In this document: one piece after another, positions 14,818-53,028 of the stretch | Numbering within the stretch: position 1 is the first letter of the stretch | Layout of the letters: every line of letters starts with the position of its first letter | Virus record (IMG/VR): IMGVR_UViG_3300020204_000005 | Length of the DNA stretch: 64,000 nt | Direction: 5' to 3' (one strand) | From: a virus | Program-made: the position numbers and the translations under genes | Notes under the pieces: generated by a model | What the model was told of the DNA's origin: nothing | What the model saw: only the letters and a program-made list of their open reading frames with translations | Database searches by the model: none

Positions 14818-14822
14818 AAATA

Positions 14823-14957: not shown

Positions 14958-14961
14958 ACTT

Positions 14962-15041: not shown

Positions 15042-15081
15042 CTATCAATCGTAAATCCAAGTAACCCCTTGGTAGATGTAT

Positions 15082-15154: not shown

Positions 15155-15162
15155 CAATATTT

Positions 15163-15245: not shown

Positions 15246-15249
15246 CAAT

Positions 15250-15343: not shown

Positions 15344-15353
15344 AAAATAATAT

Positions 15354-15428
15354 GGTGTCGGTAGCTCAGTAGGTAGAGCAGAGGTTTGAAACACCTTGTG
15401 CCGAGCGGTTCGATTCCCTCCCACACCA
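15354..15428 (+). tRNA. tRNA-Phe(GAA), possibly degenerate
   Basis: GAGGT-ttGAAac-ACCTT; C.C mismatch in the acceptor stem and an extra base in the T stem. Confidence 0.65.
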
Positions 15429-15434
15429 CAAAAC

Positions 15435-15510
15435 GCCTTCGTAACTCAATAGGTAGAGTACTTGATTTGTAATCAAGATGTTGCAGGTTCGATTCCTGTC
15501 AGTGGCTCCA
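15435..15510 (+). tRNA. tRNA-Thr(UGU) with encoded CCA and mismatched acceptor stem
   Basis: CTTGA-ttTGTaa-TCAAG; GCAGG-ttcgatt-CCTGT; acceptor GCCTTCG/CAGTGGC has T.T and C.A mismatches. Confidence 0.7.
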
Positions 15511-20946: not shown

Positions 20947-21999
20947 ATGTTAGAATTGTTGAACAAATATTACGAGGATGGGTTGGTGACAAAACAAGTT
21001 CATCCAACTCTTCCTTTGTCTATATGGAACTACACCCCAAAAGTACAATATGGTCTTTTATATAATCAATACGCTTTATGGGATGAGGTAACTACTCAAG
21101 CAAGAGGTTTAGTTGTTGATGAAAATAGTAACGTTGTTGCAAGACCATTTAAAAAATTTTTTAATATAGAAGAAAAAAGATTCACACCAACTAAAGAATT
21201 TGATGTGTATGAAAAAATGGATGGTTCTTTAGGTATATTATTTAACTATGAAGGTGAATGGATATTTGCATCTAAAGGTTCTTTTACTTCAGACCAATCA
21301 GCCGAATTCAAAAAAATATTTGATGAAAAATATTCGACTAATTTATTAGACTTTTCTTGTACTTATTTGTTTGAAATATTATATCCTGAAAATAGAATAG
21401 TGGTTAACTATGGTGATTTAAGAGATGTGGTATTATTAGGTAAAATAGTAACTGAGTCTGGTGAAGAACTTGACGTGGAATCATATCGGAATAACTTTAA
21501 TGTTGTTAAAAAATATGATGGAATAACTGATTACACTTTTTTGAAAAAAATGGTTGCCGATAACCATGAAGGTTTTATAGTAAAATTTTTTAATGGAAAT
21601 AGAATAAAAGTGAAAGGAGAAGAATATCTTCGATTACATAAAATAATGACTAACATATCAACTACTTCTGTTTGGGAAGTTTTAAGTAATCAAGGAGATA
21701 TAGGTGAATTATTAAATGATGTTCCTGATGAATTTTATGATAAGATAAAATCTTATGAAAAGGATTTAAAATACCATTTTCATCAAATAAATGAGTATTG
21801 TGGTAAACTACATGATGGTTTTAGATATGGTAAGTATGGTGATGTTGACCCTGAACCAACTAAAAAAGAATTTGCAGAATTTGTTATGAGAAATGTAACA
21901 AAAACTGGTTTACGTCCTGTACTATTTGCTATGTGGGATAAAAAACCATATGACTACATAATATGGAGATTATTAAAACCTGAGTTTAGAAAACTATAA
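20947..21999 (+). CDS. T4 Rnl1-like RNA ligase
   Basis: ARGLV...ARPFKKFFN, YEKMDGSLG, FEILYPENRIVV, EGFIV, RIKVKGEEY. Confidence 0.9.
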   Translation: MLELLNKYYEDGLVTKQVHPTLPLSIWNYTPKVQYGLLYNQYALWDEVTTQARGLVVDENSNVVARPFKKFFNIEEKRFTPTKEFDVYEKMDGSLGILFNYEGEWIFASKGSFTSDQSAEFKKIFDEKYSTNLLDFSCTYLFEILYPENRIVVNYGDLRDVVLLGKIVTESGEELDVESYRNNFNVVKKYDGITDYTFLKKMVADNHEGFIVKFFNGNRIKVKGEEYLRLHKIMTNISTTSVWEVLSNQGDIGELLNDVPDEFYDKIKSYEKDLKYHFHQINEYCGKLHDGFRYGKYGDVDPEPTKKEFAEFVMRNVTKTGLRPVLFAMWDKKPYDYIIWRLLKPEFRKL

Positions 22000-30847: not shown

Positions 30848-31675
30848 ATGCAAAGAGATTACGAATTATTAAAGAGTGTTTTGTCCGTTCCATCTAAAAC
30901 GTATCAAGAAGAACGTATGATTAAATTCCTAACCGAATGGTTAACGGAAAACAACTTCCCATTTTTTGTTGATAAAATGAACAACATCTATGTTACAAAA
31001 CAAACAGATGAAAATATTGAGTATTTTCCTTGTGTAGTTGCACATACGGATACCGTTCATAATATTGACACGATTAATATACGTGAAGGTAATTTACCAA
31101 ACGCTCAGAATGTTTTAAAACCCGCATTAAAGGCTTATAACAATGAAGGATTACCAACAGGTATTGGTGGTGATGACAAATGTGGTATATACGCTTGTTT
31201 AGAATTGTTAAAAGAAATACCGAATCTAAAAGCGGCTTTCTTTGTGTCTGAAGAAACAGGTTGCCATGGCTCAAGAAATGCCGATAAAGAATTCTTTGGT
31301 AATGTTGGTTACGTTATTGAATTTGATGCTCCTGGTAATTGGATGGTTAGCGAATATTGTATGGGAGTCCAATTATTTGAACGTGGTACCGAATTTTTTA
31401 AATCTTGTAATGAGGCTTTAACTGAGGGGTTCGAAAATCGACAAAAATACCAAGCACACCCGTATACTGATGTTTACGCTTTAAAACAGTTATTTGATTT
31501 TGCTTGTATCAATTTCTCTATTGGTTATTACAATTATCACACCCCTAATGAATATGTTGTTATTGAGGATGTTTACAGTGGTATCGAAACGGGTAAAAAA
31601 ATGATTGAGAGGTTAGGTAACACTAAACACACTTTCATTCCGAAACGAAAACAACAACAAACATTGTTTGGATAA
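30848..31675 (+). CDS. M20/M28-family zinc peptidase
   Basis: AHTDTVH, GIGGDDKCG, VSEETGCHGS, IEFD, YNYHT; TAACTTTG at 30836-30843. Confidence 0.85.
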   Translation: MQRDYELLKSVLSVPSKTYQEERMIKFLTEWLTENNFPFFVDKMNNIYVTKQTDENIEYFPCVVAHTDTVHNIDTINIREGNLPNAQNVLKPALKAYNNEGLPTGIGGDDKCGIYACLELLKEIPNLKAAFFVSEETGCHGSRNADKEFFGNVGYVIEFDAPGNWMVSEYCMGVQLFERGTEFFKSCNEALTEGFENRQKYQAHPYTDVYALKQLFDFACINFSIGYYNYHTPNEYVVIEDVYSGIETGKKMIERLGNTKHTFIPKRKQQQTLFG

Positions 31676-31687: not shown

Positions 31688-33730
31688 TTATTCATCCCCT
31701 TTTTTCTTTCTACCCTTTTTAACAGGTACTGTCTTTATTTTGATTTCTTTTTCTTCTACGTATAGAATATATTTTGTTTGTTCATTTATATTACCTTTTA
31801 ATACTTCTTCGGAAATAAAGTCCTCAATCTTATCTTGTATTGCTCTTTTAATAGGTCTTGCCCCGTAAGTTTCATCAAACCCAACTTCAGAGATTAAATC
31901 TAAAATAGTATCATCATAAGTAATCTGATATTTCAGATTAACCAACCTTTCAAATAATTTATCAAGTTCCAATTTAACTATCGATTTAACTTCATCCTTT
32001 TTAAGAGAATTAAAGATAACTATTTCATCAATCCTGTTTAAGAATTCAGGTGCAAAAAACTTCTGTAATTCCTTCTTCAACAAGTCTCGTTTATATTCCT
32101 CCTCAATATATGTATTGTTATTACTTTTAAATCCGACACCAGAACCAAAATCCTGTAATTTTTTAACTCCCAAATTAGATGTCATAATGATGACACAATT
32201 TTTAAAATTAATCTTTCTACCAAGACCATCAGTAATATGACCATCATCTAAAACTTGTAATAGTGATGAAAAAATATCTTTATTCGCCTTTTCAATCTCA
32301 TCAAATAAAATAACAGAGTACGGTTTATTTTTAACTTGTTCAGTTAGTTGTCCACCTTCATCATAACCTACATATCCTGGAGGTGCCCCGATTAATCTTG
32401 AAATCGTATGTTTCTCTTGAAACTCCGACATGTCAACTCGAATTAAATTTTCTTCACTACCAAATATTTCTTTTGCTAATTGTTTTGCCAAATATGTTTT
32501 ACCAACACCTGTGGACCCTAAGAAAATAAAAGAACCTATCGGTTTATTAGGGTCTTTAATACCTAATCTATTTCTTCTGATTGATTTTGCAATTTTAGAA
32601 ACCGCTTCAGATTGACCAATAACTTTATTACCTAAACTCTCTTCTAATTTAGTCAATGATTGAGTCTCATCAGAATTTAATTTTGAAATCGGAATTTTAG
32701 TCATGTTTGAAACTACTTCATAAACTAATTCGAGACTAACTTCTCGTTTTTGGTTTTGTAATTCAGATTCAAATTTTTTCTTTTCGGAGTCTAATTTATC
32801 TAAAATTCGTCTTTCTTTATCTCTTAAATTTGCAGCCTCTTCGTAGTTTTGTTTTTTTACAACTTCAATTTTTTCTAATTTAATATCCTGAGCTTGTAAT
32901 TTTAATTTTTCAATAATTTCAGGCATTTTTATATCAACTTGACTTCTTGCGCCAACCTCATCTATAATATCAAACGCTTTATCTGGAAATTCCCTATCTG
33001 TGATATACCGTTCAGCCAAATCAACACATAAGTTAAGTATTTCATCAGTATATGAGACTTTATGGTATGTCTCGTACTTGTCTTTTGCATGTTTTAAAAT
33101 CTCTAAAGTTTCTTGTTTTGTTGCAGAATCAACAATTACTTTTTGAAATCTCCTTTCTAATGCTCCGTCCTTCTCGAAATTTTTTCGATATTCATCAAGT
33201 GTTGTGGCACCAATACATTGTATTTCACCTCTCGCTAATGCGGGTTTAAATATATTTGACGCATCCAAGGAACCTGAAGAATTACCAGCACCAACTATTG
33301 TATGAATTTCATCTATGAATACAATAATATTTGAATTGTTTTGAAGTTCATCAATTATTACTTTCATTCTTTCCTCAAACTGACCTCGGTATTTTGTACC
33401 TGCAACAATTGAGGTCATATCTAATGATACAATTCTTTTATCAGTTAAGTTTCTTGGACATTCCCCATTGAATATCTTAATAGCTAATCCTTCGGCAATT
33501 GCAGTTTTACCACAACCTGGTTCGCCAATAATGATTGGGTTATTCTTTTTTCTTCTTGAAAGAATTTGTGCAATTCTTGTTATCTCACGTTCTCTACCAA
33601 TTACAGGGTCTAATTTACCTTCTTCCGCTAACTTTATTAAATCTCTACTAAAATTGTCCAAAACAGGTGTCGGGGAATTCTCGTTACCTTTACCTTTGTT
33701 TTGGTTACTACCATCCTTAGATTCTATCAT
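31688..33730 (-). CDS. clpC: ClpC-type Hsp100 ATPase lacking the N-terminal domain
   Basis: LDPVIGRE, GEPGCGKT, FIDEIH, UVR coiled coil, GSTGVGKT, VGF loop, GARPIKR. Confidence 0.9.
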   Translation of the reverse strand: MIESKDGSNQNKGKGNENSPTPVLDNFSRDLIKLAEEGKLDPVIGREREITRIAQILSRRKKNNPIIIGEPGCGKTAIAEGLAIKIFNGECPRNLTDKRIVSLDMTSIVAGTKYRGQFEERMKVIIDELQNNSNIIVFIDEIHTIVGAGNSSGSLDASNIFKPALARGEIQCIGATTLDEYRKNFEKDGALERRFQKVIVDSATKQETLEILKHAKDKYETYHKVSYTDEILNLCVDLAERYITDREFPDKAFDIIDEVGARSQVDIKMPEIIEKLKLQAQDIKLEKIEVVKKQNYEEAANLRDKERRILDKLDSEKKKFESELQNQKREVSLELVYEVVSNMTKIPISKLNSDETQSLTKLEESLGNKVIGQSEAVSKIAKSIRRNRLGIKDPNKPIGSFIFLGSTGVGKTYLAKQLAKEIFGSEENLIRVDMSEFQEKHTISRLIGAPPGYVGYDEGGQLTEQVKNKPYSVILFDEIEKANKDIFSSLLQVLDDGHITDGLGRKINFKNCVIIMTSNLGVKKLQDFGSGVGFKSNNNTYIEEEYKRDLLKKELQKFFAPEFLNRIDEIVIFNSLKKDEVKSIVKLELDKLFERLVNLKYQITYDDTILDLISEVGFDETYGARPIKRAIQDKIEDFISEEVLKGNINEQTKYILYVEEKEIKIKTVPVKKGRKKKGDE

Positions 33731-33800: not shown

Positions 33801-34139
33801 ATGAGTATAAGGAAACATTATAGTAAATACGTTGAAACTTTAAAAGCCGATAATGACTTATTGGAGACTTATAGAGATTTAAGAAGAGCGTTTCAAAGAG
33901 AAGGGTGGACAGAGAAAGATTTACAAAATCCTCCTTATTATCCAAACGATATCATGAGAAATTTTCAAAATTTTAGTATCCTAAGAGATAAATTATTTTC
34001 TGAGTTAAGAAGTTTCTTTGATATTGACCATAATGAATTTGTAGATTATCTTCAAGATAAACTTAAAATAATAAATTTAGAAATACCATTAGAAGATGGC
34101 AATATTGAAAGAGGAAATCAAGGGGACGAAGATTATTAA
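33801..34139 (+). CDS. Hypothetical late protein
   Basis: ATATTTAT at 33789-33796. Confidence 0.65.
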   Translation: MSIRKHYSKYVETLKADNDLLETYRDLRRAFQREGWTEKDLQNPPYYPNDIMRNFQNFSILRDKLFSELRSFFDIDHNEFVDYLQDKLKIINLEIPLEDGNIERGNQGDEDY

Positions 34140-34338
34140 TGAAGTCCAATCATCAAATTTAGTTAAGACTGAATATGATACCGAAACAAAAAAATTGGTT
34201 GTTGAATTTAAAAACGGCTCTAAATACGAGTATGATGAAGTACCTCATCAAATTTATACTCAATTTAGATTATCCGAGTCACAAGGTAAATTTTTTACAA
34301 GCAAAATTTCAAAAACCTTTAAATACAAAAAATTATGA
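34096..34338 (+). CDS. KTSC domain protein
   Basis: VQSSNLVKTEYD...LVVEFKNGSKYEYDEVP...SESQGKFF. Confidence 0.9.
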   Translation: MAILKEEIKGTKIINEVQSSNLVKTEYDTETKKLVVEFKNGSKYEYDEVPHQIYTQFRLSESQGKFFTSKISKTFKYKKL

Positions 34339-34350
34339 TATTTATGGGTA

Positions 34351-36690
34351 ATGAGCAATTTACAATCTATCTTAAAAAGTTTTAATTTAAAAGACAATCT
34401 TAACCCAAAGATATGGGTTAATCCAAAATCTTCAAATACAAAAATGGTCCCTAAAGTTAGAGAGACCCTGTTAGAGATTGCTAATGATTTTATAGAATTT
34501 TTAGATGTTGATATTATAGTGTCTGATGTTGTAATGACAGGTTCATTGGCCAATTATAATTGGTCTAACTATTCTGATGTCGACATCCACATAATTGTTG
34601 ATTTTAGTCAATTTCCTGAAAATGTAAAAACTTTATACGAAGAGTTGTTCTACTTAAAAAAAGCAATTTACGGTAATAAACAAAATATTAAAATTTTTGG
34701 GTATGACGTTGAGCTTTATGTTGAGGATGAGAATATTGAAAAGGATGTAAAGAACATTGCAATCTACTCAATATTATATGATGAATGGAAAAGTTCACCT
34801 AAAAAAGATTTAGTTAATATTAATAAAACCAATGTAACTGAAAAAGCTAAACAATGGATGAGAATAATCGATGGTGTTGCGGAAAACATACAAGACGAGG
34901 ATATTGACACCGCAAAATCATTAATCAAAAAATACGTTAATAAAATCAGAAAATATAGAGAATGTGGTTTAGAGTCTGGTGGGGAATATTCTGATGAAAA
35001 TCTTGTATTTAAAATATTGAGAAGAAATGGTTACCTTGAGAAAATTAAAAGTATGAAAAATAAATTGGTCGATAAAAGATTATCCTTAAAAGAAGCGACG
35101 ACAACCATCGGTGGTAAATTTAAAGTAGACATTGAAAATGGTCCATCTAACCATGGTAAACGAGCCTTTGGTAATTGGCAATCGGATAATGCTTGGGATA
35201 TATTCGCCCCTGCAGGTACTGTGGTTAATTCATATACTGAAGGTACCGTAATAAAAATAAGGGACACAGGTAAAAATTCAGGTAAAGTATTTGGTACACA
35301 AGTCTCAATAACAGGGACTAATGGATATCCTGATATTTTTTATACTCACCTGAAGAATGTAAAATTACAAAAGGGCGATAAAGTTAAAGTGGGTGATGTT
35401 ATTGGGCTTATATCTGAATGGGTCGGTCATGATAATATGACTCACGTTCATATTGGATTACCAAGAGGAAAACATTTAAGAGATTTATTAAAGAATTCAG
35501 ATAAAATATTTGTTGGTTCTGCAGGTGGAAGTGGAAAAACTGTTCCACCACCATCAGACGATTCTTTACCATTAAAAAGAGATAGTGAGATAGATAAAAA
35601 AATAGTAGATTCTGCAAATGAATTGATTAAAGATAATTCTGAGTTTGCTAATACTAAAAAAGAAAATGTTATCACAACTTTAGAAAATGCCGAAGAAGGA
35701 AAAAATAAAATTTTAAGTGAGTTTTATAAATTAGTACAATCTAAAAAAGAACTCAAAAATCTTAAAGGTGTTGAATCAACAATCCCTGTTGACAGAGGAG
35801 TTGAATTACTTCAAATAGCACTACAGTTTTTAGGGTTCCTATTACCTAAATGGGGTGTTGATGGTAAATTTGGAAATGAAACTGAAATAGCGGTTAAAGA
35901 CTTCCAAAAGAAATACAAATTGGATGGGGATGGAACTATGTCAAGTGAAGACTTAACAAAATTATTTTCCATTTTAGTTTTAAAAGATTTTAACGATTCT
36001 AATATGTCATCAATTGAAAAAGATGAAGACCCAAATTTAACAAATGATTCTAAAGTGATGGGGAATGTTAAAATAGTTGGTAGTTATAATAGTTCACAAA
36101 AAAATATTATTTCATCATTAATTGATGAAATGAAAAGAGTGGGTATTACTGATTCTTACGCTCAAATAGGTATTTTATCGGTTATTGACAAAGAGAGTAA
36201 TTTTAAAAGTTTTAAAGAAGTTGGTTATTGTGGGACTTCAGATAGTAGAATTGTTAGTATCTTTGGTAACAAAAGAGGTAACATGTGTAAATCTCTTAAA
36301 TGTAATGACGCGAAATTTTTTGATTGTCTTTACGGATATAAATCAGGTTTAAGTTTAGGAAACGACCAACCTGGTGATGGATGGAAATATGTTGGTAGAG
36401 GTCTTAATGGTCTTACAGGTAAAGCAAATTATCGTAAATACGGTGGAATGGTTGGAGTGGATTTAGTATCTAATCCTGAGTTAATGGAAGACCCTAAAAT
36501 TGCTGCTAAAGTTGCAATTACATATTTTACTAAAGGTAAATCAGCAAGTTCTCTCCCTAAATTTAAATCAAAAGAAGATTCAGTTAACTACTTTGCGGAT
36601 TTAAATGCTGGTAGGAGGAACTCTTCATTTGGTAGAGGTGCTGCAATTGTGTCATCTAAAAAATTTGACGTAGATAATAATATCACCTAA
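34351..36690 (+). CDS. Multidomain protein: Pol-beta-type nucleotidyltransferase + M23 peptidase + PG-binding + GH19-like glycosidase
   Basis: TGSLANYNWSNYSDVDIH / DVELYVE; WDIFAPAGT...YTHL...HVHIG; LQIALQFLGF...GVDGKFGNETEIAVKDFQ; KES...YVGRGLNGLTGKANY. Confidence 0.8.
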   Translation: MSNLQSILKSFNLKDNLNPKIWVNPKSSNTKMVPKVRETLLEIANDFIEFLDVDIIVSDVVMTGSLANYNWSNYSDVDIHIIVDFSQFPENVKTLYEELFYLKKAIYGNKQNIKIFGYDVELYVEDENIEKDVKNIAIYSILYDEWKSSPKKDLVNINKTNVTEKAKQWMRIIDGVAENIQDEDIDTAKSLIKKYVNKIRKYRECGLESGGEYSDENLVFKILRRNGYLEKIKSMKNKLVDKRLSLKEATTTIGGKFKVDIENGPSNHGKRAFGNWQSDNAWDIFAPAGTVVNSYTEGTVIKIRDTGKNSGKVFGTQVSITGTNGYPDIFYTHLKNVKLQKGDKVKVGDVIGLISEWVGHDNMTHVHIGLPRGKHLRDLLKNSDKIFVGSAGGSGKTVPPPSDDSLPLKRDSEIDKKIVDSANELIKDNSEFANTKKENVITTLENAEEGKNKILSEFYKLVQSKKELKNLKGVESTIPVDRGVELLQIALQFLGFLLPKWGVDGKFGNETEIAVKDFQKKYKLDGDGTMSSEDLTKLFSILVLKDFNDSNMSSIEKDEDPNLTNDSKVMGNVKIVGSYNSSQKNIISSLIDEMKRVGITDSYAQIGILSVIDKESNFKSFKEVGYCGTSDSRIVSIFGNKRGNMCKSLKCNDAKFFDCLYGYKSGLSLGNDQPGDGWKYVGRGLNGLTGKANYRKYGGMVGVDLVSNPELMEDPKIAAKVAITYFTKGKSASSLPKFKSKEDSVNYFADLNAGRRNSSFGRGAAIVSSKKFDVDNNIT

Positions 36691-36757: not shown

Positions 36758-38113
36758 ATGGGAAATTTGAGACCAATTGGTAGTGAAAAACTACAAGGAA
36801 TGGACAAAATAAATCGTATTTTACAAATAGCGAAATATAATGAGCATATCCCAACTCCAATCAATGAGAATAAATCTTTGGAGTATCAAAAAACATTATC
36901 AGATGGTAATACATATGTTATTGTAAAGGAGAATAATGGTTACATAATTAAAAAGGGGTTGAATGAATCGGTTGCTGATTATATGGAATCAATGAAAGAT
37001 AGAAAATACTACCCATCATATTCTCAAGCTCTTAAGAGATTAAACATTATGGCCAAGGAAATTAATTCTTCTGAAGGTTATATTAAAAATATTTCTTTAT
37101 TTGAAAGTGAGGATGATGTGGAAGAAAAATATTTTCTTAAGTTAGATGGTGGTGAAACTAATGAACAGGATGTTCCCGCTCCTGCTCCTGCACCCGCACC
37201 CGCTCCTGCACCCGCTCCTGCACCCGCTCCTGAAGCACCTGTAGATGCTGATATGGGAGGTGCTGATATGCCAGATGAAGAACCTGAAGATGACATGGAT
37301 ATGCCAGATGAAGAACCTGAAGATGATGAAGATGTTACGTTTAAAATGATTCAAAAACTAACAGGTAAATTGGCTCAAAAAATTAGAACTTTTATGGAAG
37401 ACGAAGAAAATGAAATGTCTTCTAAAGATATTAAATATGTAATTAACTCCGTAGTTTCCGCAATTGATTTAGATTCATTAGAAGATGACGATTTAGATGA
37501 AATTATTTCTAAATTAGAAGGTGAAGAAGAAGGTGAAGAAGAAGGTGAAGAAGAAGGTGAAGAAGGTGGTGAACCAATGCCGTCACCTGAAATGCCGTCA
37601 CCTGAAGTGGCTCCCGCACCTCCAGCGGCACCTGCGACGGGTGAAGTTGCCGAGTATGATGACTTAGACGATGGTAAAGAATTTGTTGATGATATTTTTA
37701 GTGAAGAGGAAGATTATGAAAATTACGGTAAAAATCGTGGTTATAGAGGTAAGAAACACAGGTTTACAGAACTTGGAGAAGATGAGTCAGGTGCGGTAGA
37801 AGGAATGATTGAAGGTTTATTTAGTGAGTCTAAAGTCGACAACATTTTGAAAAAATATTTTAGAGTTGATGAAAAGGAGAGAGTTATCTTAGAAGAAAAG
37901 AAAAAACAAAAAAGTGTTTTAGCTGAAAAAACAAATAAAAATATTGTTAGGATTAAAAATTTATCTGAGACAGTTGCTCAAGAGATATCATCAAGTAAGT
38001 TAATTAAAAAATACCCAAATTTAAAGTTTGTTGGAAAGTCACAACAAAATAATTTAATATTTGAGAATAATAGTAGAAGAATTAAAGTAACTCCTAAAGG
38101 AAGTATTTTATGA
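36758..38113 (+). CDS. Acidic, Pro/Ala-rich low-complexity late protein
   Basis: (PA)n, MPDEEPEDD x2, EGEE x4; TATTTATAAATA at 36718-36729. Confidence 0.7.
   Translation: MGNLRPIGSEKLQGMDKINRILQIAKYNEHIPTPINENKSLEYQKTLSDGNTYVIVKENNGYIIKKGLNESVADYMESMKDRKYYPSYSQALKRLNIMAKEINSSEGYIKNISLFESEDDVEEKYFLKLDGGETNEQDVPAPAPAPAPAPAPAPAPAPEAPVDADMGGADMPDEEPEDDMDMPDEEPEDDEDVTFKMIQKLTGKLAQKIRTFMEDEENEMSSKDIKYVINSVVSAIDLDSLEDDDLDEIISKLEGEEEGEEEGEEEGEEGGEPMPSPEMPSPEVAPAPPAAPATGEVAEYDDLDDGKEFVDDIFSEEEDYENYGKNRGYRGKKHRFTELGEDESGAVEGMIEGLFSESKVDNILKKYFRVDEKERVILEEKKKQKSVLAEKTNKNIVRIKNLSETVAQEISSSKLIKKYPNLKFVGKSQQNNLIFENNSRRIKVTPKGSIL
37176..37230 (+). repeat. 6-nt coding tandem repeat (Pro-Ala)n
   Basis: CCTGCT/CCCGCA-type units encoding PAPAPA. 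Confidence 0.85.
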
Positions 38114-38520
38114 GTTATTTAATTTATGTAAATGAATTAGGTGCAAATTATAAAGGGGAAACAACTTATGAATTCATTTTCTCCGATAATTTGGAAAATG
38201 TATGGGGAGATTCTTGGGAATCAAAACCATCGAATGGTTACCCATCTCCACCCGATTTAGATTACATAGAAAAAGTTGGAGTTTTGAAGACAGATAAGAC
38301 AACATTATCAGTTATTCAAAACTCTGATTACTTTTCAATGGTTGACGCAATTGATAGAGTTATAGCGTTGGCGTGGGAAGATGAAAACGAAACAACCAAT
38401 TTTGACTTAGTTAAAAGATTGGTATTTAGTTTTGGTCAAACTGAAGACTCCGTAAAAGATAAATTATATGAACGAGATTTCGTTCTTGAATTTGAGAAGA
38501 AAGTGGTTTATGAAAAATAA
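38110..38520 (+). CDS. Hypothetical protein
   Basis: ORF track; overlapping operon organisation. Confidence 0.7.
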   Translation: MSYLIYVNELGANYKGETTYEFIFSDNLENVWGDSWESKPSNGYPSPPDLDYIEKVGVLKTDKTTLSVIQNSDYFSMVDAIDRVIALAWEDENETTNFDLVKRLVFSFGQTEDSVKDKLYERDFVLEFEKKVVYEK

Positions 38521-39496
38521 TAAAAAAATACTATCTTTGTTAAACCATGGGTTTAAAGGTTCGTTACTTAATACGCTAAACGAAGCTCAAATCAATTCAA
38601 TGTATAGTAGATTAGTTGAAAATAAAAAAGAAACTAAAGAACAACAAATTGTAAACACTCAAACAATGGTTTTTGATTCTTCTAAAGAAGACCAAAAGGC
38701 TAAATTAAATCAAATGTTAAAAGACCCTTCTAAATTACAAGGTCAAAACATAGAAGTTAAAGAAGATGAAGAATCAGATATTAATTGGGGATTAACAGGT
38801 CATGACCAAGAACCAATTCAAAAAGGACCTACAGGTGACGGGGACCCAAATTCAATCCAAGAGAAAGAATTAATGGAAAAATTCGTATCTAAAAAACAAC
38901 AAAAATATTTTTTTGCGAAATGTGGTGATGGAAAAACAAAAGAAGAAAAAAAATGGTGTAAAATGGCTGAAGAATTTGCGGAAAAAACAAATTTTAAAAA
39001 ACTACCTAAAACTAAAAAGAAAGAAACCAAAGAAGAATTCACCATGAAAAATTATTTGGATAAAGTGGGTAGTGCTTATGCAAATAACATGAAAGGACAA
39101 TTAAGTAAAATGGCAAAAGAAAGTATCAATAAAAAAGAGTTAGAAAAAGGTATTATGTCTTTGGTTGAAAAACATATTACACCTAAAATGAGTAAAAGGG
39201 ATTTACTAAATTTGGTTTTTGAACAAGGAACTAAAGAAAAGGAGAGAACTAAGGAAAAAGAAAAAACTAAAAGCCCTGAACGTGATAATCCGTATGCTCC
39301 TAAACCTGGACCAAAGAAAAGTCCAAAAGCGGGAGATACCAAGATTGCACCTCCAATACCTAAAACACCTACAAAACCTGGTAAACCTGATACAAATACC
39401 CCATATAACCCTAAAGTTAAACCCGCACCAAAAGCTGACAAGGGAAAACTACCTAATTGGTTGACATTTGATGCTATTGGAATTAATCTAAAATAA
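38510..39496 (+). CDS. Hypothetical late protein with Lys/Pro-rich C-terminus
   Basis: Start moved to 38510; LMEKFVSKKQQKYFFAKC motif. Confidence 0.7.
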   Translation: MKNNKKILSLLNHGFKGSLLNTLNEAQINSMYSRLVENKKETKEQQIVNTQTMVFDSSKEDQKAKLNQMLKDPSKLQGQNIEVKEDEESDINWGLTGHDQEPIQKGPTGDGDPNSIQEKELMEKFVSKKQQKYFFAKCGDGKTKEEKKWCKMAEEFAEKTNFKKLPKTKKKETKEEFTMKNYLDKVGSAYANNMKGQLSKMAKESINKKELEKGIMSLVEKHITPKMSKRDLLNLVFEQGTKEKERTKEKEKTKSPERDNPYAPKPGPKKSPKAGDTKIAPPIPKTPTKPGKPDTNTPYNPKVKPAPKADKGKLPNWLTFDAIGINLK

Positions 39497-39497
39497 G

Positions 39498-40841
39498 ATG
39501 AGTGTTAATTATAAAATGGAAAAAATATTAAGAGCAAAAACTAATTTAGAAAAAAAATTAGTTAGAGAAGGTTTAACTTATAATGAGAAATCATTATTAA
39601 ATGAAATCAAAAAAAGTTTAACTGAGGCACCCATAGATTATGAAGGTCCTGAAAGAATGGGTCAGGATGTTGAGAGAAAAATAACACAGAGAGAGACTCC
39701 ATTTCATGGTCACCCCGCAATACCTCAAGAACAAAGAGATTTTATCGAGGTGATTGCATCAAAAAGATTTAAAGACTCAGTTGATAAAGTAAGAAGATTT
39801 TTAGGTAATACCCAACCTCTACAAGGACCAAACTCTTTTATGAACTTGATGATGATGGGTATGCAATCATTACAACAAATTTCATCTATTGAATCAAGAA
39901 ATAAACAAAGACTTGAAGAATTAGCGGTTGAGTTGGTTAAAAAAGAAATGGGGATTCCTGAAGGAGCTTTACAATTCGACGCCGAATTAGTTAGTGGACC
40001 TATGAGTGCCGCTCAAGGGATGCAAACCCAATCACAAAATCCTTCTGAAGATGAGATTAAAGATGCTTTTAAAGAAGGTGAAGAACATACCGAAGATTTA
40101 TTAAACTTTGTAGATGAGTTCGAAAAATTCAATTTAGAGAAAGCAAAAAGACGATTTATAAATTCTTTAATACAAGGTGCGGCGTTCAAGGGTGGACACA
40201 TGTATGTCTTGGCGGCTGATGAAATAAACAATATTGACCCAAGATTATTACAGATGTATGGTGTTAACCAATCATTAATGGAACATCTATATTGGGTTTT
40301 CCCTGATATGGAAAATATGGCGGGTTCGGGAGGTGGACAATTAGGTCAAAGTGAAATTGATGATGAGACCGACCCACCAACAGTAAAGGCTAGGGCAGGT
40401 ACTTTTCCGTTATTAATTCATGAATTGGTAAAAGGTGTTTATGAAGTATTTGGTACTCACGGATTACCTGATGACCCAAGACAACAAGAAATGGTTATGG
40501 GTTCTGAAGATACATTACCTGCTGAGATTTGGGATTCAAGATTAGGACCTATTTTTTGGGAAAAATTTGTTGCGACATACCCGATAGAATTATTCGAGGA
40601 TGATATGAAACACATCCAACATTATCTATTTATGAGATTTTCTAAATTAGATGCGAATGAATTCTTTAGAGTTGCCAAACTTATATTACAAGGAGACCCT
40701 AAAGGACAACAATTCATTCAAAGGATGGTTGATGAAATAGTTTCAGAATTAAAAAAACAAGAATATGAAAGAAGTATGAATCAATATGACGATGACGATG
40801 ATGATTATGACGATATCGACCTTTCACAATTAGGATTATAA
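39498..40841 (+). CDS. Hypothetical protein upstream of terminase
   Basis: 447-aa ORF; SLTE|A site. Confidence 0.7.
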   Translation: MSVNYKMEKILRAKTNLEKKLVREGLTYNEKSLLNEIKKSLTEAPIDYEGPERMGQDVERKITQRETPFHGHPAIPQEQRDFIEVIASKRFKDSVDKVRRFLGNTQPLQGPNSFMNLMMMGMQSLQQISSIESRNKQRLEELAVELVKKEMGIPEGALQFDAELVSGPMSAAQGMQTQSQNPSEDEIKDAFKEGEEHTEDLLNFVDEFEKFNLEKAKRRFINSLIQGAAFKGGHMYVLAADEINNIDPRLLQMYGVNQSLMEHLYWVFPDMENMAGSGGGQLGQSEIDDETDPPTVKARAGTFPLLIHELVKGVYEVFGTHGLPDDPRQQEMVMGSEDTLPAEIWDSRLGPIFWEKFVATYPIELFEDDMKHIQHYLFMRFSKLDANEFFRVAKLILQGDPKGQQFIQRMVDEIVSELKKQEYERSMNQYDDDDDDYDDIDLSQLGL

Positions 40842-44723: not shown

Positions 44724-45440
44724 ATGGTTAAGTTTGGATTATTAAAATCAAAGATAGAAAAAGTATTAGTTGAGTCGTACTCAAATGATACTTTTAAAGA
44801 AGAATTGAAAAGATTTAAAGTATATGTTTTAGAGAATAAAAACATTAGTAAATTATTTTATCTTTATGACGAATTAAATTATAAAAGAGGGTTAAATGAT
44901 ATCCTTGCAAATGATTATATAAATGAATGTATAACCATTTACGAAAACACAATTAATAAAGTTAAAGAAAAAGATATTTTAAGATTAAAAAATTGGGTAA
45001 GTAACGTCAATTCAAACAACGACTATCCTGAAATTGATAGTTTATTTTCCACTGATGTTTTAACAATTGAATCTAAAATAAAAAGTAAAAAAATAATTAA
45101 AGAATCGTTAACAAAACCAAAACCTATACAAAAAGAATATGTTCATCTACCATTAAGTACTATGGTTGGAATAGCAAATAAAACAATTTCTAGTTACGTT
45201 GAAAGTTTAAATGAATCTGAAAAGAAAGAATTAATTGATTTTTTAAACACTGACGATTCATCTCTAAATAATGATTTTAATGAGGTTAAAAATCAGGTAA
45301 TTAATAAATTATCAAATCTTAAAAAAGGTTCCGATTCGGAAACATTATCCCGAATAAACGAAACTATCGAGAGAGTATCATCAGAAAAATGTAACAAGTT
45401 TACACTATTCAAACTGAAAAAACTAAAAGAAAATCTTTAA
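44724..45440 (+). CDS. Hypothetical head-module protein
   Basis: ATATTTAT at 44701-44708; start moved to 44724. Confidence 0.7.
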   Translation: MVKFGLLKSKIEKVLVESYSNDTFKEELKRFKVYVLENKNISKLFYLYDELNYKRGLNDILANDYINECITIYENTINKVKEKDILRLKNWVSNVNSNNDYPEIDSLFSTDVLTIESKIKSKKIIKESLTKPKPIQKEYVHLPLSTMVGIANKTISSYVESLNESEKKELIDFLNTDDSSLNNDFNEVKNQVINKLSNLKKGSDSETLSRINETIERVSSEKCNKFTLFKLKKLKENL

Positions 45441-45631
45441 TCTAAATTAGATTTAAATTTTTGTTGTACGTATTTAGCTTTTTGAAGTTCCTGTCTTTTT
45501 ATAACTGATTTCTTTATAAAAGTTTTTCTATTATTTAATTCAGACATTTGTCTTATCTTAATAATTTTACTTTTGTATTGTTTTAGAGCTTTCTCTATTG
45601 AGTTTTTATTATCCACTTTAACTATTATCAT
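45437..45631 (-). CDS. rpsU: Ribosomal protein bS21
   Basis: MIIVKV...SIEKALKQYKSK...ELNNRKTFIKKSVIKR; 64 aa, basic. Confidence 0.85.
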   Translation of the reverse strand: MIIVKVDNKNSIEKALKQYKSKIIKIRQMSELNNRKTFIKKSVIKRQELQKAKYVQQKFKSNLD

Positions 45632-45723
45632 ATACTACATATATCTTAAAAATTTTCTTTTTTTGACTATTGATACAAATATACTTATTTTTTTGAAAAA
45701 TAAACTTAAAAATATGGAATTTA

Positions 45724-46170: not shown

Positions 46171-46206
46171 ACTCAAATACTTCAATATTTATAATTAAAA
46201 TTGACA

Positions 46207-46932
46207 ATGAGTTTACAAATAATACAACCAGGCCAAGTAGGTAAAGGAATTCTTATCGAATATGACGCAGGATTTATTAATCCTAAAGATAAGTATAATT
46301 CTGAACTAATCAGAGAATCCAAAAATTTCATGGACCATACAAAACCTTTTGAATTTTATGCAGTATTACAAAAATATAATACACCAAATAGGAACGGTAG
46401 AATTTACCCTGAAAGGATTTTAAAAAGAGAAGCTGATAATTACAAAAAAATGATTGAAAAGGGGACATCATTATCTGAATTGAATCACCCTGAATCTTCT
46501 CTTATAGACTTAGATAGAGTATCTCATATTATAACTGATGTATGGTGGGATGGACCAATATTAATGGGTAAATTAAAATTACTTACAAGCCCAGGATTTC
46601 ATGAAAGAGGTGTGTGTTCCACAAAAGGTGATTTAGCGGCAAACTATTTAAGACAAGGGGTAACTCTTGGTATTTCTTCTCGTGGGGTAGGTTCATTAAA
46701 AAAGGTTGGGGAACAAAATGAAGTGCAGGATGATTTTGAATTGATTTGTTTTGATTTAGTTTCGTCACCATCAACACCTGGGGCTTATTTATTTTTAAAT
46801 CCTGAAGACAAAAATAATTTCGAGGAAAATCTTGATGAGGAGAAAAAAATGTCAATTGAAAGAAATGTTGGACAGTCAGGAAATAAATCACTTGACTTAA
46901 TGAGAAAGTTATCCGATTATTTAGGATACTAA
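46207..46932 (+). CDS. Prohead core protease (T4 gp21-like)
   Basis: NRNGRIYP, ELNHP, GISSRGVGS, FDLVSSPSTPGAY. Confidence 0.95.
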   Translation: MSLQIIQPGQVGKGILIEYDAGFINPKDKYNSELIRESKNFMDHTKPFEFYAVLQKYNTPNRNGRIYPERILKREADNYKKMIEKGTSLSELNHPESSLIDLDRVSHIITDVWWDGPILMGKLKLLTSPGFHERGVCSTKGDLAANYLRQGVTLGISSRGVGSLKKVGEQNEVQDDFELICFDLVSSPSTPGAYLFLNPEDKNNFEENLDEEKKMSIERNVGQSGNKSLDLMRKLSDYLGY

Positions 46933-47324: not shown

Positions 47325-49058
47325 ATGGCAAAAGAAAAATCATTAGTAGAAGAAGCAATCATCCAAATGAAGAATTTGGAAGAGGCGGTTGCCGAAAATG
47401 CAAAAGGAATACTTGCATCAACGATGAAGCAAGAAATCAAAGATTTAGTAAAAGAATCTCTATCTGAACAAGATGAAGATGAGGTTGAAACAGATGTTGA
47501 CATTGAAGATGACGCAGACATTGATATGGATGCCGAAGATGATATGGATACAGATAACGACTTAGGTGATGAAGACATTGACGTTGATGTAGATGCGGAT
47601 TCTGAAGATGTAATTGACTTAACAGGTCAACCTAGTTCTGAAGTTCTTAAAGTGTTTCAATTACTTGGACCTGAAGACCAAATAGTGGTTACTAAAGACC
47701 CTAATGGGAACATAAACTTAAAAGATAACGAAACAAACAAAGAATATATGATAGTAGGTGAAAACATTGAAGAAGAAGATTATCTGAACGAATACTCTGA
47801 ATTAGGTGATATGAATGAAGAAGATTGGTCGACAGATGGAATGAATAATGAAGATATCGATGCTCTTGTTGAAAGAGTTTTTGGTGTTGAAGATGAATAT
47901 TCTGAAGATTCTGACTATGATGACACTTCTGACTTTGTTGGACTTGGTGGTATGGACGAAGGTGTTTACGCTGCCGTTCGCGAAGATTATGACGATGAAG
48001 CAAATATGGGTGCCTTAGATGAAGATGATTTCGATAGTATTGATATGAACAAAATGTACGGAGACGAAGGTGCTGACCAATTAGGTGAGGATAACGATGA
48101 TATCGTTTACGAAATTGAATTTGATGGAGAAGAACCTGAACTTTCTGAACGGGGCCACTCTAGATATCGTGATTTAAAATACCATTTTGGTAGACGTGGT
48201 GAAGATGAAGATGAATATGACACTACGGATGACTATAAAGATGGAGATTATGATGAACTTGAAGAATGGTCTTGGGGTGGTGCTTTAGCAGGAGGAATAT
48301 CAGGAGGATTAGGTATTGATGAAGATATGGAAGAACCTGTAATGGAAAGTAAAAAAATGTCACGTAAAATACCTGGAGTCGGAATGGGTAAACCTAAATT
48401 TTCTTATGATGGCAAACCTAACCAAAACTTACGTGTGAAAAAACAAGGTTACGGTGGTAAAGGAATTGGATTTGGAAACGCTAAAAAAGCATCTAAGTTT
48501 GACGCTGACAAAGATAATGGTCAAATGGATGGAGAATTTAGAGTTAAACCTAAAAAGTTTGAAGCAAAAGAAGCGGCACGTACATATGGTAATGGTTCTA
48601 AATCAGGAAGAGGGCTTAGAAAAGGAATCACTCCTAATAGAAACCTTACGTTTGAAAACGTTGACGCGAGAGAAATACAAATCCTTAGAGAAAAAAATGA
48701 AGAATACAGAAAAGCATTAAATATCTTCAGAAATAAATTGAATGAGGTTGCGGTGTTTAACTCAAACTTGGCTTACGCTACACGTTTGTTTACAGAACAC
48801 TCAACGTCTAAACAAGAAAAAATAAATATATTAAGAAGATTTGATTCTGTAGAAACTATTAAAGAGTCTAAGAATTTATATCACCAAGTTAAGGATGAAT
48901 TATCTGTGTCATCAAACCAATCACCAATCAACGAATCATTTGAAAGAGTAATTGAAAAAACTCCTTCTACAGGTTCAGCGGTTAACTTGATTGAGTCTAA
49001 GACATATGAAAATCCACAATTCTTAAGAATGAAAGACTTAATGTCAAAATTAAGATAA
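47325..49058 (+). CDS. Putative prohead scaffold/core protein (gp22-like)
   Basis: Very acidic, with a coiled-coil C-terminus; sits between protease and MCP; many L/I-x-E sites. Confidence 0.7.
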   Translation: MAKEKSLVEEAIIQMKNLEEAVAENAKGILASTMKQEIKDLVKESLSEQDEDEVETDVDIEDDADIDMDAEDDMDTDNDLGDEDIDVDVDADSEDVIDLTGQPSSEVLKVFQLLGPEDQIVVTKDPNGNINLKDNETNKEYMIVGENIEEEDYLNEYSELGDMNEEDWSTDGMNNEDIDALVERVFGVEDEYSEDSDYDDTSDFVGLGGMDEGVYAAVREDYDDEANMGALDEDDFDSIDMNKMYGDEGADQLGEDNDDIVYEIEFDGEEPELSERGHSRYRDLKYHFGRRGEDEDEYDTTDDYKDGDYDELEEWSWGGALAGGISGGLGIDEDMEEPVMESKKMSRKIPGVGMGKPKFSYDGKPNQNLRVKKQGYGGKGIGFGNAKKASKFDADKDNGQMDGEFRVKPKKFEAKEAARTYGNGSKSGRGLRKGITPNRNLTFENVDAREIQILREKNEEYRKALNIFRNKLNEVAVFNSNLAYATRLFTEHSTSKQEKINILRRFDSVETIKESKNLYHQVKDELSVSSNQSPINESFERVIEKTPSTGSAVNLIESKTYENPQFLRMKDLMSKLR

Positions 49059-49101: not shown

Positions 49102-50982
49102 ATGGGAGCATTATTAGAATCAGGTCTTGTTGGTAACATCGGTCTTAAGCACCTTAAAGTTATCAAAGAAGATACAATTAACAAATGGGATAGATTAGGA
49201 TTCCTAGAAGGTCTAAGAGGACATTTAAAAGAGAACGTAGCTCAGTTATATGAGAACCAAGCGTCTCACCTAATTAATGAGGCAACTTCTGACGGTTCTT
49301 CAGGTTCATTTGAAACTGTTGTTTTCCCAATCGTTAGACGTGTATTCTCTAAATTATTAGCTAACGACATCGTGTCTGTACAAGCTATGAACTTACCTAT
49401 CGGTAAATTATTCTACTTCGTACCTAAAATCCAAGGGTATAAAGATGGTAGTTATGATGCGGCGACTTATTCAGGTGGTTCAGGAGAACATTACGGTCCT
49501 GTTGGAGCAGTAAACGGTTTAACTGCTGACCAAGCTAAAGCTGGTCAAGGTTATACTACAGGTACTGCGTCTAATTACAATCCTACTTACAAGAAAAATC
49601 TTTACGATTTATTCTATGAAGGTAATGAAGGTCAATTAGACCCTCCAGGATTATTTGATTACTCTAAAGGTCAGTGGTCGGCGATTACTGCAACTACAGA
49701 CGTACAAGTTTGGAATGGTTCTAACTTAGTTGACGCTGATGGTCAATACAATGGCGAAAACGTAAGAAAAGTAATCGTTAAAATGTGTGGTTTTGCTAAC
49801 ACAGGTAATGGTAAATTAATCGGACCTGATGGAAATGAGTATGATACTGAATCATTCTTAGCAGACTTAAGAGTATTCGCTAACGAAAATTTCACAGATG
49901 ATGATTCACCATGTAATGTTGTTTTTGCTGACGACGCTAAAACTATACCAAATTCTTTATTGTTCCGTGTAGTTACACAACAATATGGACAAGGAATTGT
50001 TTCTAATTTATCAACAAGAGCACAAGCATCTTGGCCTACAGAAGGAAATGGTGGATACTTTAATGATATTTGTACTCCTGATGGATGTATCTTTTTAGAA
50101 GTTGACCTTTCTTGTCCTGTATGTGCTAACTGTAACGCAACATCTTTAGATGGTTACACAGGTACTACAATCGATACATTAGGTCTTAATGACTTCACTG
50201 CAGTATTTAGACGTTACAAAGAACTTGAATTCGAAGACAAAATCGGTGAGGTTTCTTTCGACCTTGAGTCTGTAACAGTTTCTGTAACTGAAAGAAAATT
50301 AAGAGCACAATGGTCACCTGAATTGGCTCAAGACGTAGCGGCATTCCACAACATCGATGCTGAAGCTGAATTAACGGCTTTATTATCTGAACAAGTTGCG
50401 GCAGAAATCGACCGTGAAATCTTAAGAGACCTTAGAAAAGGTGCGGCTTGGAACTTACGTTGGGATTACAACGGATGGAGAAGAATCAACGCTACTACTG
50501 CGTATACACAAAAAGACTGGAACCAAACATTGATTACTGCAATCAACCAATTGTCAGCACAAATCCACAAATCTACTTTAAGAGGTGGAGCTAACTGGAT
50601 TGTTGTATCTTCTGAGGTTTCTGCGATTTTTGATGATTTAGAATACTTCCACGTATCTAACGCGTCTCCTGAGCAAGACCAATACAACATGGGTATTGAA
50701 AGAGTTGGTACATTATCAGGTCGTTACCAAGTTTACCGTGACCCTTACTTCCCACCAAACCAAATCTTAATTGGTCACAAGGGAACGTCATTGTTAGACA
50801 CAGGTTACATCTACGCACCGTATGTACCTCTACAATTAACACCTACAATGTATAACCCATTCAACTTTACACCTATCAAAGGTATTATGACAAGATACGC
50901 TAAGAAAATGGTTAACAACCGTTTCTATGGTAGAGTAACTGTTGATGGTATCCGTACATTCGACTTAAGAGAATTGAGATAA
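49102..50982 (+). CDS. Major capsid protein (T4 gp23-like) with large insertion
   Basis: IVSVQAMNLPIGKLFY, RKLRAQWSPELAQD, EIDREI, YAPYVPL, GIMTRY; LINE|A maturation-like site at aa 60. Confidence 0.95.
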   Translation: MGALLESGLVGNIGLKHLKVIKEDTINKWDRLGFLEGLRGHLKENVAQLYENQASHLINEATSDGSSGSFETVVFPIVRRVFSKLLANDIVSVQAMNLPIGKLFYFVPKIQGYKDGSYDAATYSGGSGEHYGPVGAVNGLTADQAKAGQGYTTGTASNYNPTYKKNLYDLFYEGNEGQLDPPGLFDYSKGQWSAITATTDVQVWNGSNLVDADGQYNGENVRKVIVKMCGFANTGNGKLIGPDGNEYDTESFLADLRVFANENFTDDDSPCNVVFADDAKTIPNSLLFRVVTQQYGQGIVSNLSTRAQASWPTEGNGGYFNDICTPDGCIFLEVDLSCPVCANCNATSLDGYTGTTIDTLGLNDFTAVFRRYKELEFEDKIGEVSFDLESVTVSVTERKLRAQWSPELAQDVAAFHNIDAEAELTALLSEQVAAEIDREILRDLRKGAAWNLRWDYNGWRRINATTAYTQKDWNQTLITAINQLSAQIHKSTLRGGANWIVVSSEVSAIFDDLEYFHVSNASPEQDQYNMGIERVGTLSGRYQVYRDPYFPPNQILIGHKGTSLLDTGYIYAPYVPLQLTPTMYNPFNFTPIKGIMTRYAKKMVNNRFYGRVTVDGIRTFDLRELR

Positions 50983-52572: not shown

Positions 52573-53028
52573 ATGAAAAGATTAATTATAACTGAAGAAG
52601 AAAAAAGAAGTATTCTTTTAAAACACGGTAGTAAATCATTTTTAAATGAGGCTGCTAAAGACGATATTATGGCAATACAAAAATCTTTAGGTTTAACTGC
52701 GGATGGTGTGGCAGGACCTAAAACAATCTCATCTATTATCGCAAAATTAGGTGGAGGTTCATCAGCGGCGGCGACCAATAAAACCGCAACACCTACGACA
52801 CCTGCAACACCAACAACCCCTACTACACCTACTACACCAACAACCCCTACTACACCTACTACACCAACAACCCCTACTACACCTACTACACCTGCCGCGG
52901 CTACCACTACAACATTCTCAGCGGCACCTGTTGCGGGGGCAACAACTTTAGAACAAGCTTGTGGTACAAGAAAAACTAATAAAGACTATAGACTTTGTAA
53001 AAAAGTATTTAACAAAACTACCAAATAA
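52573..53028 (+). CDS. Leader-family protein with PG-binding-like domain and (TTP)n linker
   Basis: MKRLIITEEEKRSIL; IQKSLGLTADGVAGPKT. Confidence 0.75.
   Translation: MKRLIITEEEKRSILLKHGSKSFLNEAAKDDIMAIQKSLGLTADGVAGPKTISSIIAKLGGGSSAAATNKTATPTTPATPTTPTTPTTPTTPTTPTTPTTPTTPTTPAAATTTTFSAAPVAGATTLEQACGTRKTNKDYRLCKKVFNKTTK
52807..52887 (+). repeat. 27-nt coding tandem repeat x3 (Thr/Pro-rich)
   Basis: ACACCAACAACCCCTACTACACCTACT repeated three times. Confidence 0.9.

Follow-up and report, generated by a model that had tools for sequence, protein, structure and literature searches.

A virus-only nucleotidyltransferase fused to peptidoglycan-directed domains next to T4-type head genes: a candidate packaged and ejected polyvalent protein of a jumbo phage

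This report concerns an uninterrupted open reading frame (ORF) of 779 amino acids (aa) at positions 34351-36690 (+ strand; ATG at 34351, stop at 36688-36690) of a 64,000-nt stretch from the IMG/VR virus record IMGVR_UViG_3300020204_000005; this stretch is referred to as the window, and all positions are those of the whole stretch. The ORF joins a nucleotidyltransferase (NTase) to an M23-like endopeptidase, a PG_binding_1 domain and a GH19-like module. Within its family the NTase stays constant, and the lysin cassette is added at the 3' end and can be exchanged. With a confidence little better than even, we believe that the product is a late 'polyvalent' protein, encoded by a jumbo phage of Bacteroidota that has a T4-type head, and that it would be packaged into the virion, split there by a protease and ejected.

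The original prediction placed all four domains in one ORF, and the Pfam and PHROG searches bear this out. The NTase module (aa 1-248, 34351-35094), which on conservation and the AlphaFold2 (AF2) model consists of a core plus a four-helix bundle, matches Pfam NTP_transf_2 (aa 53-136, 21.3 bits against a cut-off of 21) and phrog_36119, labelled in PHROG as of unknown function (aa 11-246, E 6e-38). It is followed by the junction L244-S-L-K-E248/A249 (35080-35097; here and below the slash marks a proposed or known scissile bond), which is a candidate prohead-protease site. The M23-like endopeptidase module comes next (aa 253-388, 35107-35514; Pfam Peptidase_M23 at aa 280-371, 43.9 bits, cut-off 28.7, E 2.9e-11), and then the PG_binding_1 domain (aa 483-533, 35797-35949; 41.1 bits, cut-off 23, E 2e-10, and 45.7 bits in the search of the genome record). 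All these lie on the + strand, as does the C-terminal GH19-like glycosidase/transglycosylase module (aa 575-779, 36073-36687). In the latter, Pfam Glyco_hydro_19 matches aa 676-728 with 24.7 bits, below its cut-off of 25.5, and with profile positions 103-156 alone covered; several homologues pass PF00182 in the precomputed annotation. Two PHROG families overlap this end of the protein, phrog_181 ('endolysin', aa 434-729, E 1e-30) and phrog_3201 ('tail fiber', aa 561-738). No signal peptide or hydrophobic segment was seen in the 779-aa protein. The full-length AF2 model has a predicted template modelling score (pTM) of 0.34, so the domains appear to be independent and connected by flexible linkers, as beads on a string.

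An artefact, in which a frameshift or chimeric assembly fused two genes, was one of the two refutations foreseen originally; its sole ground is the metagenomic origin of the viral contig, and its probability is practically negligible. A search of 5.8 billion proteins returned 414 relatives. Four-domain full-length homologues (744-784 aa, 46-96% identity) occur in ENA, JGI, NCBI and Logan assemblies, and the unbroken frame in dozens of independent assemblies with conserved flanks rules out a frameshift or chimera. The fusion is thus conserved down to 46% identity on independent contigs. Shorter relatives have the form NTase-M23 (~430-450 aa) or NTase-M23-PG_binding with other C-terminal modules (~646-740 aa). 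A megablast of the gene against 50,697 phage records gave no match, and no phage record covered at least 80% of the protein in tblastn.

The Pol-beta-type motifs that had been read from the sequence (GS, DVD and the third acidic residue in DVELYVE) are intact. Residues G64-S65, D76, D78, H80, E121, R203, N217, K221, R224 and R225 are invariant in 30 fused homologues; G64 S65, D76 x D78 and E121 are also invariant in 50 mostly stand-alone homologues, and much the same invariant core set is found in an alignment of 87 diverse multidomain relatives. All catalytic residues are kept in the module, which speaks against the catalytically dead NTase that had been considered as a possibility; judging by these residues, the module looks catalytically competent. 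It shows the features of the Pol-beta superfamily, namely hG[GS], [DE]h[DE]h, a third carboxylate and the minimal NTase alpha/beta fold, and NTP_transf_2 is matched by 33 of the 87 family representatives (best E 1e-9).

Structure prediction followed by Foldseek had been proposed as a way to place the NTase among known enzymes. The AF2 model of the module is confident (predicted local distance difference test, pLDDT, 93.1) and its structure matches are all NTases (CdnE, AAD(9), ANT(4') and FAM46), but they are too weak (template modelling score, TM, ~0.25) to choose between CdnE, AAD(9), TENT5 and DrrA. The top match is CdnE 6wt9 (TM 0.24, root-mean-square deviation 17.8); AAD(9) 6sxj has a probability of 0.91 and TM 0.27, and its two-domain layout of ~250 aa matches ours in arrangement and size. 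A sequence search of the PDB with aa 1-248 returned nothing at E<=10. The best match of the PDB profile search was the AMPylation domain of DrrA over the GS...SDxD stretch, which at E 0.024 is not significant and serves as a lead only. Among the annotated neighbours, no effector of the type found in cyclic-oligonucleotide-based anti-phage signalling systems (CBASS) and no Cap gene adjoins the NTase gene.

The NTase represents a large virus-only family of ~3,900 clusters, so far exclusively viral. When 1.84 billion cluster representatives were searched exhaustively by phmmer with aa 1-248 (clusters of the family are represented at 50% identity), 3,909 matched at E<=1e-3 and 1,060 at E<=1e-30; the nearest ESM Atlas clusters are 99-100% viral, and the ESM Atlas feature search with the NTase returned only the family itself. 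The module is found alone (~240-270 aa, with the end ...K-L-S-L-K) or in N-terminal, middle or C-terminal position in larger proteins. Its partners in the 87 multidomain representatives are PG_binding_1 (21), M23 (13), Phage_lysozyme2 (4), GNAT (3), VanY (2) and Glucosaminidase (2), with Amidase_2, SLT and NUDIX once each; in one ESM Atlas cluster the NTase is joined to a zeta-toxin-type kinase domain. Among cultured phages, the stand-alone form is carried by T4-like cyanophages, Lak megaphages, Maribacter phages and Caulobacter phage Cr30, and one cyanophage homologue is annotated as an aminoglycoside NTase. The tRNA nucleotidyltransferases of XacN1 and Atu_ph07, which were also considered, are not members of this family.

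The late motif and the KTSC neighbour named in the original prediction are both present. The late-type promoter-like motif ATATTTAT (34338-34345, +) stands 6 nt before the ATG. It has 36 copies in the window against 14.5 expected, and 36 is reached in 0 of 100 shuffles. Copies also lie 5-25 nt ahead of the terminase gene, the prohead protease gene and others on the + strand; presumably, the motif acts as a promoter. The KTSC-domain gene (34096-34338, +; 80 aa; Pfam KTSC E 2.9e-17) lies directly upstream of the fusion, and a KTSC ORF with 64-92% identity occupies this place in 76 of 80 related viral contigs, the other four being cut off upstream. The KTSC protein is more conserved than the NTase and precedes its gene with or without an attached lysin. 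It was not found ahead of the stand-alone NTase in S-CREM2, S-CRM01 and Maribacter phage Molly, where the preceding genes are not mutually related beyond the two cyanophages. The complex prediction for the KTSC protein and the NTase module gave a score of 0.00, which is no answer and counts neither way on binding.

With an estimated completeness of 35%, the 102.7-kb record implies a genome of jumbo-phage size; a gene for a CHU_C/type IX secretion system (T9SS) cargo protein in the window points to a Bacteroidota host. The gene order is ClpB-like (- strand), KTSC, the NTase gene, four unknowns, terminase, portal and, further on, the S77 protease, and from the ClpB-like gene to the S77 protease it is kept in contigs of 298 kb and 245 kb. 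The downstream genes encode a T4-type terminase, a gp20-type portal (E 1e-76), the S77 protease and a gp23-type capsid protein (E 8e-75). The four genes that directly follow the fusion (36758-40841) had no usable match in PHROG and Pfam (all four) or in the PDB (three of them); an orthologue of the first of these follows the NTase gene in 79 of 79 readable sister contigs. At the same locus, about half of the sister phages have a stand-alone NTase (243-259 aa) with no lysin within the ~2 kb fetched. The NTase thus does occur alone in close relatives, which was one of the checks proposed, and it follows that the lysin is an accessory add-on and that the locus is not the obligatory lysis locus of the clade. 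Three sister contigs (about 2750-4370) carry a stand-alone NTase with the end L-S-L-K-E-R-C-L-F-K-K and, between it and the conserved next gene, one more gene of ~1.5 kb. This gene has no relation to the lysin cassette and may represent a further piece of exchangeable cargo that is now encoded separately.

The LSLKE/A site noted at the junction lies at aa 244-249, and its E248 is invariant in the 30 fused homologues, with mostly S, A or G as P1' after it. The last helix of the NTase ends at L244, and aa 244-252 have pLDDT <50 in the full-length AF2 model and are predicted to be disordered. The processing enzyme that we propose is the S77 prohead protease (46201-46932, +; Pfam E 9.7e-23), encoded ~9.5 kb downstream in the same + strand late-gene run and similar to T4 gp21 (37% identity, E 1e-21). 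T4 gp23 is matured by a cut at E65/A66. The gp23-like major capsid protein of this phage has the putative maturation site H-L-I-N-E60/A-T-S (49267-49290, +), which aligns on T4 gp23 F-L-T-E65/A-E-I, and the junction L-S-L-K-E248/A-T-T shares with it P3 [IL], P1 E, P1' A and P2' T. It is known that T4 gp21 and its giant-phage relatives cut after Glu and that the ejected T4 protein Alt is trimmed at ITE-6 and LTE-619 (PMC5694885). If the site is defined as [LI]-x-E/ following the same paper, the junction has the features of a T4-type protease substrate: L246-K-E248/A falls in a low-pLDDT segment, and an S77 gene is present in the genome.

The distribution of this Glu in the family is suggestive. 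Among 50%-identity representatives, a Glu is present at most two residues after L-[ST]-[LIVM] in 72 of the 79 that have at least 60 residues downstream (background 0.157), in 19 of 24 with a short tail and in 1 of 15 without a tail; the tail-less NTases of the sister phages end L-S-M-[KN]-Q. At the opposite border, [LIVM]xE occurs on the N-side in 16 of 22 proteins with an internal or C-terminal NTase module (background 0.21).

Between the protease and capsid genes, in the position of a gp22-like scaffold gene, an extremely acidic protein of 577 aa is encoded (47325-49058) with 16 [LI]xE motifs (2.8 per 100 aa). The gene at 36758-38113, which is the first after the fusion, and a 248-aa gene after the portal are also rich in [LI]xE. 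The gp23-like capsid protein itself has 626 aa (49102-50982), and, compared with T4 gp23, an insertion of ~230 residues behind the N-terminal arm splits its Pfam Gp23 match into two stretches.

We presume that the 779-aa precursor would be loaded into the prohead, where the gp21-like S77 protease would cut after E248 in the disordered linker to give a 28-kDa NTase and a 58-kDa lysin. In the next infection both would be ejected ahead of the DNA or with it; the lysin would digest peptidoglycan locally in the periplasm, and the NTase would pass into the cytoplasm to act early on as an effector, nucleotidylating a host target. The predicted NTase fold is compatible with protein AMPylation, with tailing of RNA 3' ends and with modification of a hydroxyl on a small molecule. 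Some support for packaging comes from ORF156 of cyanophage S-CREM2 (126012-126725), a stand-alone NTase homologue with 34% identity over the whole module that ends ...LSLK. Proteomics of virions purified in CsCl identified its product by 6 unique peptides at 15.2% coverage, alongside the products of ORFs 154, 155 and 160 (PMC10665884, Table 3).

A number of observations weigh against this proposal. For the 779-aa protein itself, we infer packaging, cleavage, ejection and enzymatic activity alike. The authors of the S-CREM2 study point out that non-structural proteins in their virions may be abundant proteins that were co-purified (PMC10665884), and the stand-alone homologue of S-CRM01 is located among replication genes rather than structural ones. 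The tree of 169 NTase modules contains at least 10 changes in the presence of a tail, with 5 well-supported independent contrasts. The Glu tracks the tail in 3-4 of these 5 and opposes it in none, a trend that has p ~0.125 and is confounded by relatedness; we therefore make no claim of statistical proof. Stand-alone homologues also end ...LSLK, and since LSLK is the natural end of the stand-alone domain, the junction motif in part reflects domain structure. A T4-like N-terminal leader for capsid targeting was not found in the protein: its first [LI]xE, at residue 42, belongs to the folded domain, and residues 2-9 form a helix of the NTase fold. The activity of the M23 module is not assured, its first zinc-ligand His being replaced by Asp, and the tail composed of PG_binding_1 and the GH19-like part resembles modular endolysins.

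The M23 endopeptidase named in the original prediction stands as a domain assignment, with a reservation on its active site. In addition to the Pfam match, D283, H333 and H365-V-H367 are invariant in the 30 fused homologues, so that the HxH motif and the catalytic His are kept; but the His of the canonical HxxxD motif is D279 here (D279-N-A-W-D283), and this is nearly invariant in the family. By analogy with M23A enzymes, H268, nearly invariant and 15 residues ahead of D283, might stand in as the zinc ligand. In two homologues (P0042 and P0046), the position directly behind L-K-E-A is taken by a swapped-in M23 domain of the canonical H-x-x-x-D type. Among solved structures, the M23 part is closest in sequence to gp28 of cyanophage A4, an 'internal protein' (9K2V_E, E 1.3e-6), followed by LytM and lysostaphin; gp28 is a capsid-internal pre-ejectosome protein with lytic transglycosylase and M23 domains (PMC12002296). 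The stretch of aa 257-279 (35119-35187), D-I-E-N-G-P-S-N-H-G-K-R-A-F-G-N-W-Q-S-D-N, located before the M23 core, is among the most conserved of the protein and is modelled by AF2 with pLDDT <50; it could form a lid over the active site or an interaction loop bearing the substitute zinc ligand H268.

In the GH19-like part, E615, E623, Y680-x-G682-R-G684 and T689 are invariant among 11 aligned GH19-type sequences, this ORF included; we take E615/E623 and the GRG...T block to be the catalytic and substrate-binding residues of GH19. This part matches annotated endolysins (of PB1-like and other phages) and also virion 'tail fiber' proteins of jumbo phages, so its role cannot be assigned by homology alone.

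The original prediction considered it difficult to explain a cytoplasmic enzyme on a wall-degrading protein by one compartment. Endolysins wait in the cytoplasm, and the difficulty disappears if the protein is one of them or else an auxiliary lysis enzyme: it would accumulate in that compartment late in infection, with the holin encoded elsewhere, and the NTase would work there or regulate or auto-inhibit the lytic part, with no packaging involved. We find this rather doubtful, although it has several points in its favour. The phrog_181 match and the similarity of the GH19-like part to many annotated endolysins agree with it, as does the late-type motif before the gene, and the 102-kb record contains no other lysin (Phage_lysozyme, Amidase_2, a second M23 or PG_binding_1). 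The last point is uninformative, considering that the record covers ~35% of the genome. The surroundings are not those of a canonical lysis cassette with an adjacent holin or spanin and an indispensable locus: no holin-like or transmembrane gene was seen between 29.3 and 41 kb, that is, within ~5 kb of the gene, and the NTase-only loci of about half of the sister phages, with no lysin in the ~2 kb fetched behind the NTase, imply that the essential endolysin of the clade is encoded elsewhere. Two catalytic wall domains with a binding domain (530 aa) are typical of virion-associated hydrolases of phages that infect Gram-negative bacteria. The conserved junction Glu and the virion detection of a homologue would also be left unexplained.

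Lytic domains are common on tail, baseplate and tape-measure proteins, and some of the GH19-like matches are tail fiber proteins of jumbo phages, phrog_3201 being in line with this. The protein could accordingly be a tail or baseplate lysin that is not split by proteolysis, with the NTase-like domain as a structural adaptor devoid of an enzymatic role. This is unlikely in our opinion: GS, DxD, E121, R203, K221 and R224 are invariant in thousands of diverged members, even in the stand-alone ones found among replication genes, and such a conserved catalytic constellation argues for an enzyme. Besides, no tail genes were recognised alongside, and the neighbours are packaging and head genes. It is also tempting to propose a shared substrate: by attaching a nucleotide to a sugar hydroxyl of a peptidoglycan precursor or of a muropeptide (UDP-GlcNAc, UDP-MurNAc-peptide, lipid II or a recycled muropeptide), the NTase would disable the synthesis or recycling of the wall that the lysins are cutting at the same time, and one protein would attack the wall from both sides. 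The zeta-toxin, which phosphorylates UDP-GlcNAc, and ANT enzymes, which act on aminosugars, offer an analogy. The fusion partners are overwhelmingly peptidoglycan-directed and of several unrelated folds, and the Atlas cluster with the zeta-toxin-type kinase, the ANT/AAD(9)-like layout and size among the top full-length fold matches, and the aminoglycoside annotation of the cyanophage homologue point the same way. We nevertheless hold this idea to be decidedly unlikely. The fold matches are weak, and CD-NTases, TENT5 and DrrA fit equally; the periplasm contains no NTPs, so the two activities would still be in different compartments; and the stand-alone, GNAT-linked and NUDIX-linked forms suit a polyvalent effector equally well. 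If true, the shared substrate would account for the repeated fusion to unrelated peptidoglycan hydrolases and to a zeta-type kinase.

Should the packaged and ejected protein prove to be the correct explanation, it would represent a new and widespread class of 'first-minute' host-takeover effectors comparable to T4 Alt, considering the spread of the family over T4-like cyanophages, Lak megaphages, Maribacter phages and a large clade of jumbo phages that infect Bacteroidota. The Glu-flanked module would then show how T4-type heads load and release enzymatic cargo, a principle usable for packaging foreign proteins in capsids, and prohead-protease sites at domain borders would provide a handle for finding other ejected effectors in metagenomes. 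The M23 and GH19-like cassette is a candidate two-activity lysin against Bacteroidota walls.

Other features of the window can be mentioned briefly. Upstream of the KTSC gene are a ClpB/ClpC-like double AAA+ protein (31688-33730, -; phrog_4871, E 3e-240) and an M20/M28-like peptidase (30848-31675, +), and both genes are found beside the KTSC-NTase pair in distant relatives too. Within the head operon of this clade, ribosomal protein bS21 is encoded on the opposite strand (about 45437-45683, -, in the window; Pfam Ribosomal_S21 match at 20734-20928, -, in the related 298-kb contig). Tandem RNA ligase homologues (19846-20931 and 20947-21999; phrog_968 and phrog_562, T4 RnlA/Rnl-type) and five tRNA genes (Arg, Ile, Leu, Phe and Thr; 11525-15510) suggest a module for tRNA repair and supply. 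About 1.6 kb downstream of the capsid gene are two small ORFs, one (52573-53028) with a partial PG_binding_1-like match (E 1e-3) and a long T-P-T-T-P repeat and the other (53031-53534) with looser T/S-rich runs; they may encode O-glycosylated decoration or wall-binding proteins.

In comparison with known systems, the closest general concept is that of polyvalent proteins, which combine disparate domains and are proposed to enter the cell with DNA and be cut into units (Iyer, Burroughs, Anand, de Souza and Aravind 2017; PMC5512222). At least two disparate activities are present here in one phage polypeptide in a late/virion gene context, and, as in that concept, a modifying enzyme is combined with peptidoglycan hydrolases beside late or virion genes; the palette of the NTase family (lysozymes, DD-peptidase, zeta-like kinase, GNAT, Pol-beta NTase) corresponds to the list given in PMC5512222. 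The differences are in the type of element and in the processing. PMC5512222 links Pol-beta NTases with the polyvalent proteins of conjugative elements and lysozymes with those of phages, whereas the constant core of our phage protein is an NTase; processing is ascribed there to a zincin-like MPTase domain, whereas the candidate here is a separate S77 prohead protease, and Pfam and PHROG scans found no MPTase domain in the 779-aa protein. The NTase family of PHROG 36119 is not named in the passages of PMC5512222 that were consulted. The protein is set apart from known polyvalent proteins by its virus-only NTase core, by belonging to a phage rather than a conjugative element, and by S77 instead of MPTase as the candidate protease.

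The T4-type head, with homologues of gp20, gp21 and gp23, allows a comparison with Alt, a packaged and ejected enzyme that gp21 trims after Glu. The trimming of Alt occurs at I-T-E and L-T-E and includes removal of a 63-residue C-terminal piece (PMC5694885); the corresponding residues at our junction are L-K-E. Unlike Alt, which is an ADP-ribosyltransferase, the protein has an NTase fold, the piece behind the cut would be a 58-kDa lysin and not a discarded propeptide, and its packaging is a proposal; unlike Alt and the T4 internal proteins, it has no recognisable N-terminal capsid-targeting leader. S-CREM2 ORF156 keeps DxD and Glu and ends ...LSLK, as the NTase module does, but is free of lytic domains and of a KTSC neighbour and has GG in place of GS. 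The core GS...DxD...E with a helical domain in ~250 aa is common to the module and to ANT(4')/AAD(9), CdnE, TENT5/FAM46 and DrrA/SidM.

Endolysins of the phiKZ gp144 (KZ144) type and the virion lysin of the gp181 type, from jumbo phages of Gram-negative bacteria, have PG_binding_1 followed by a GH19- or lysozyme-like domain. Our protein has the same order and matches phrog_181; those proteins are devoid of the NTase and the M23 module. If the protein is packaged and ejected as we propose, a glycosidase and an endopeptidase would be delivered from the head, as with A4 gp28 and T7 gp16. A4 and T7 are podoviruses in which the ejection proteins build a trans-envelope channel, whereas the phage considered here has a T4-type head, with its tail genes outside the 64-kb window, and the protein has an N-terminal NTase and no helical-bundle channel domains. 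Conceptually, the architecture belongs to the polyvalent-protein theme, and it may work in the manner of T4 Alt combined with an ejection protein of the A4 gp28/T7 gp16 type.

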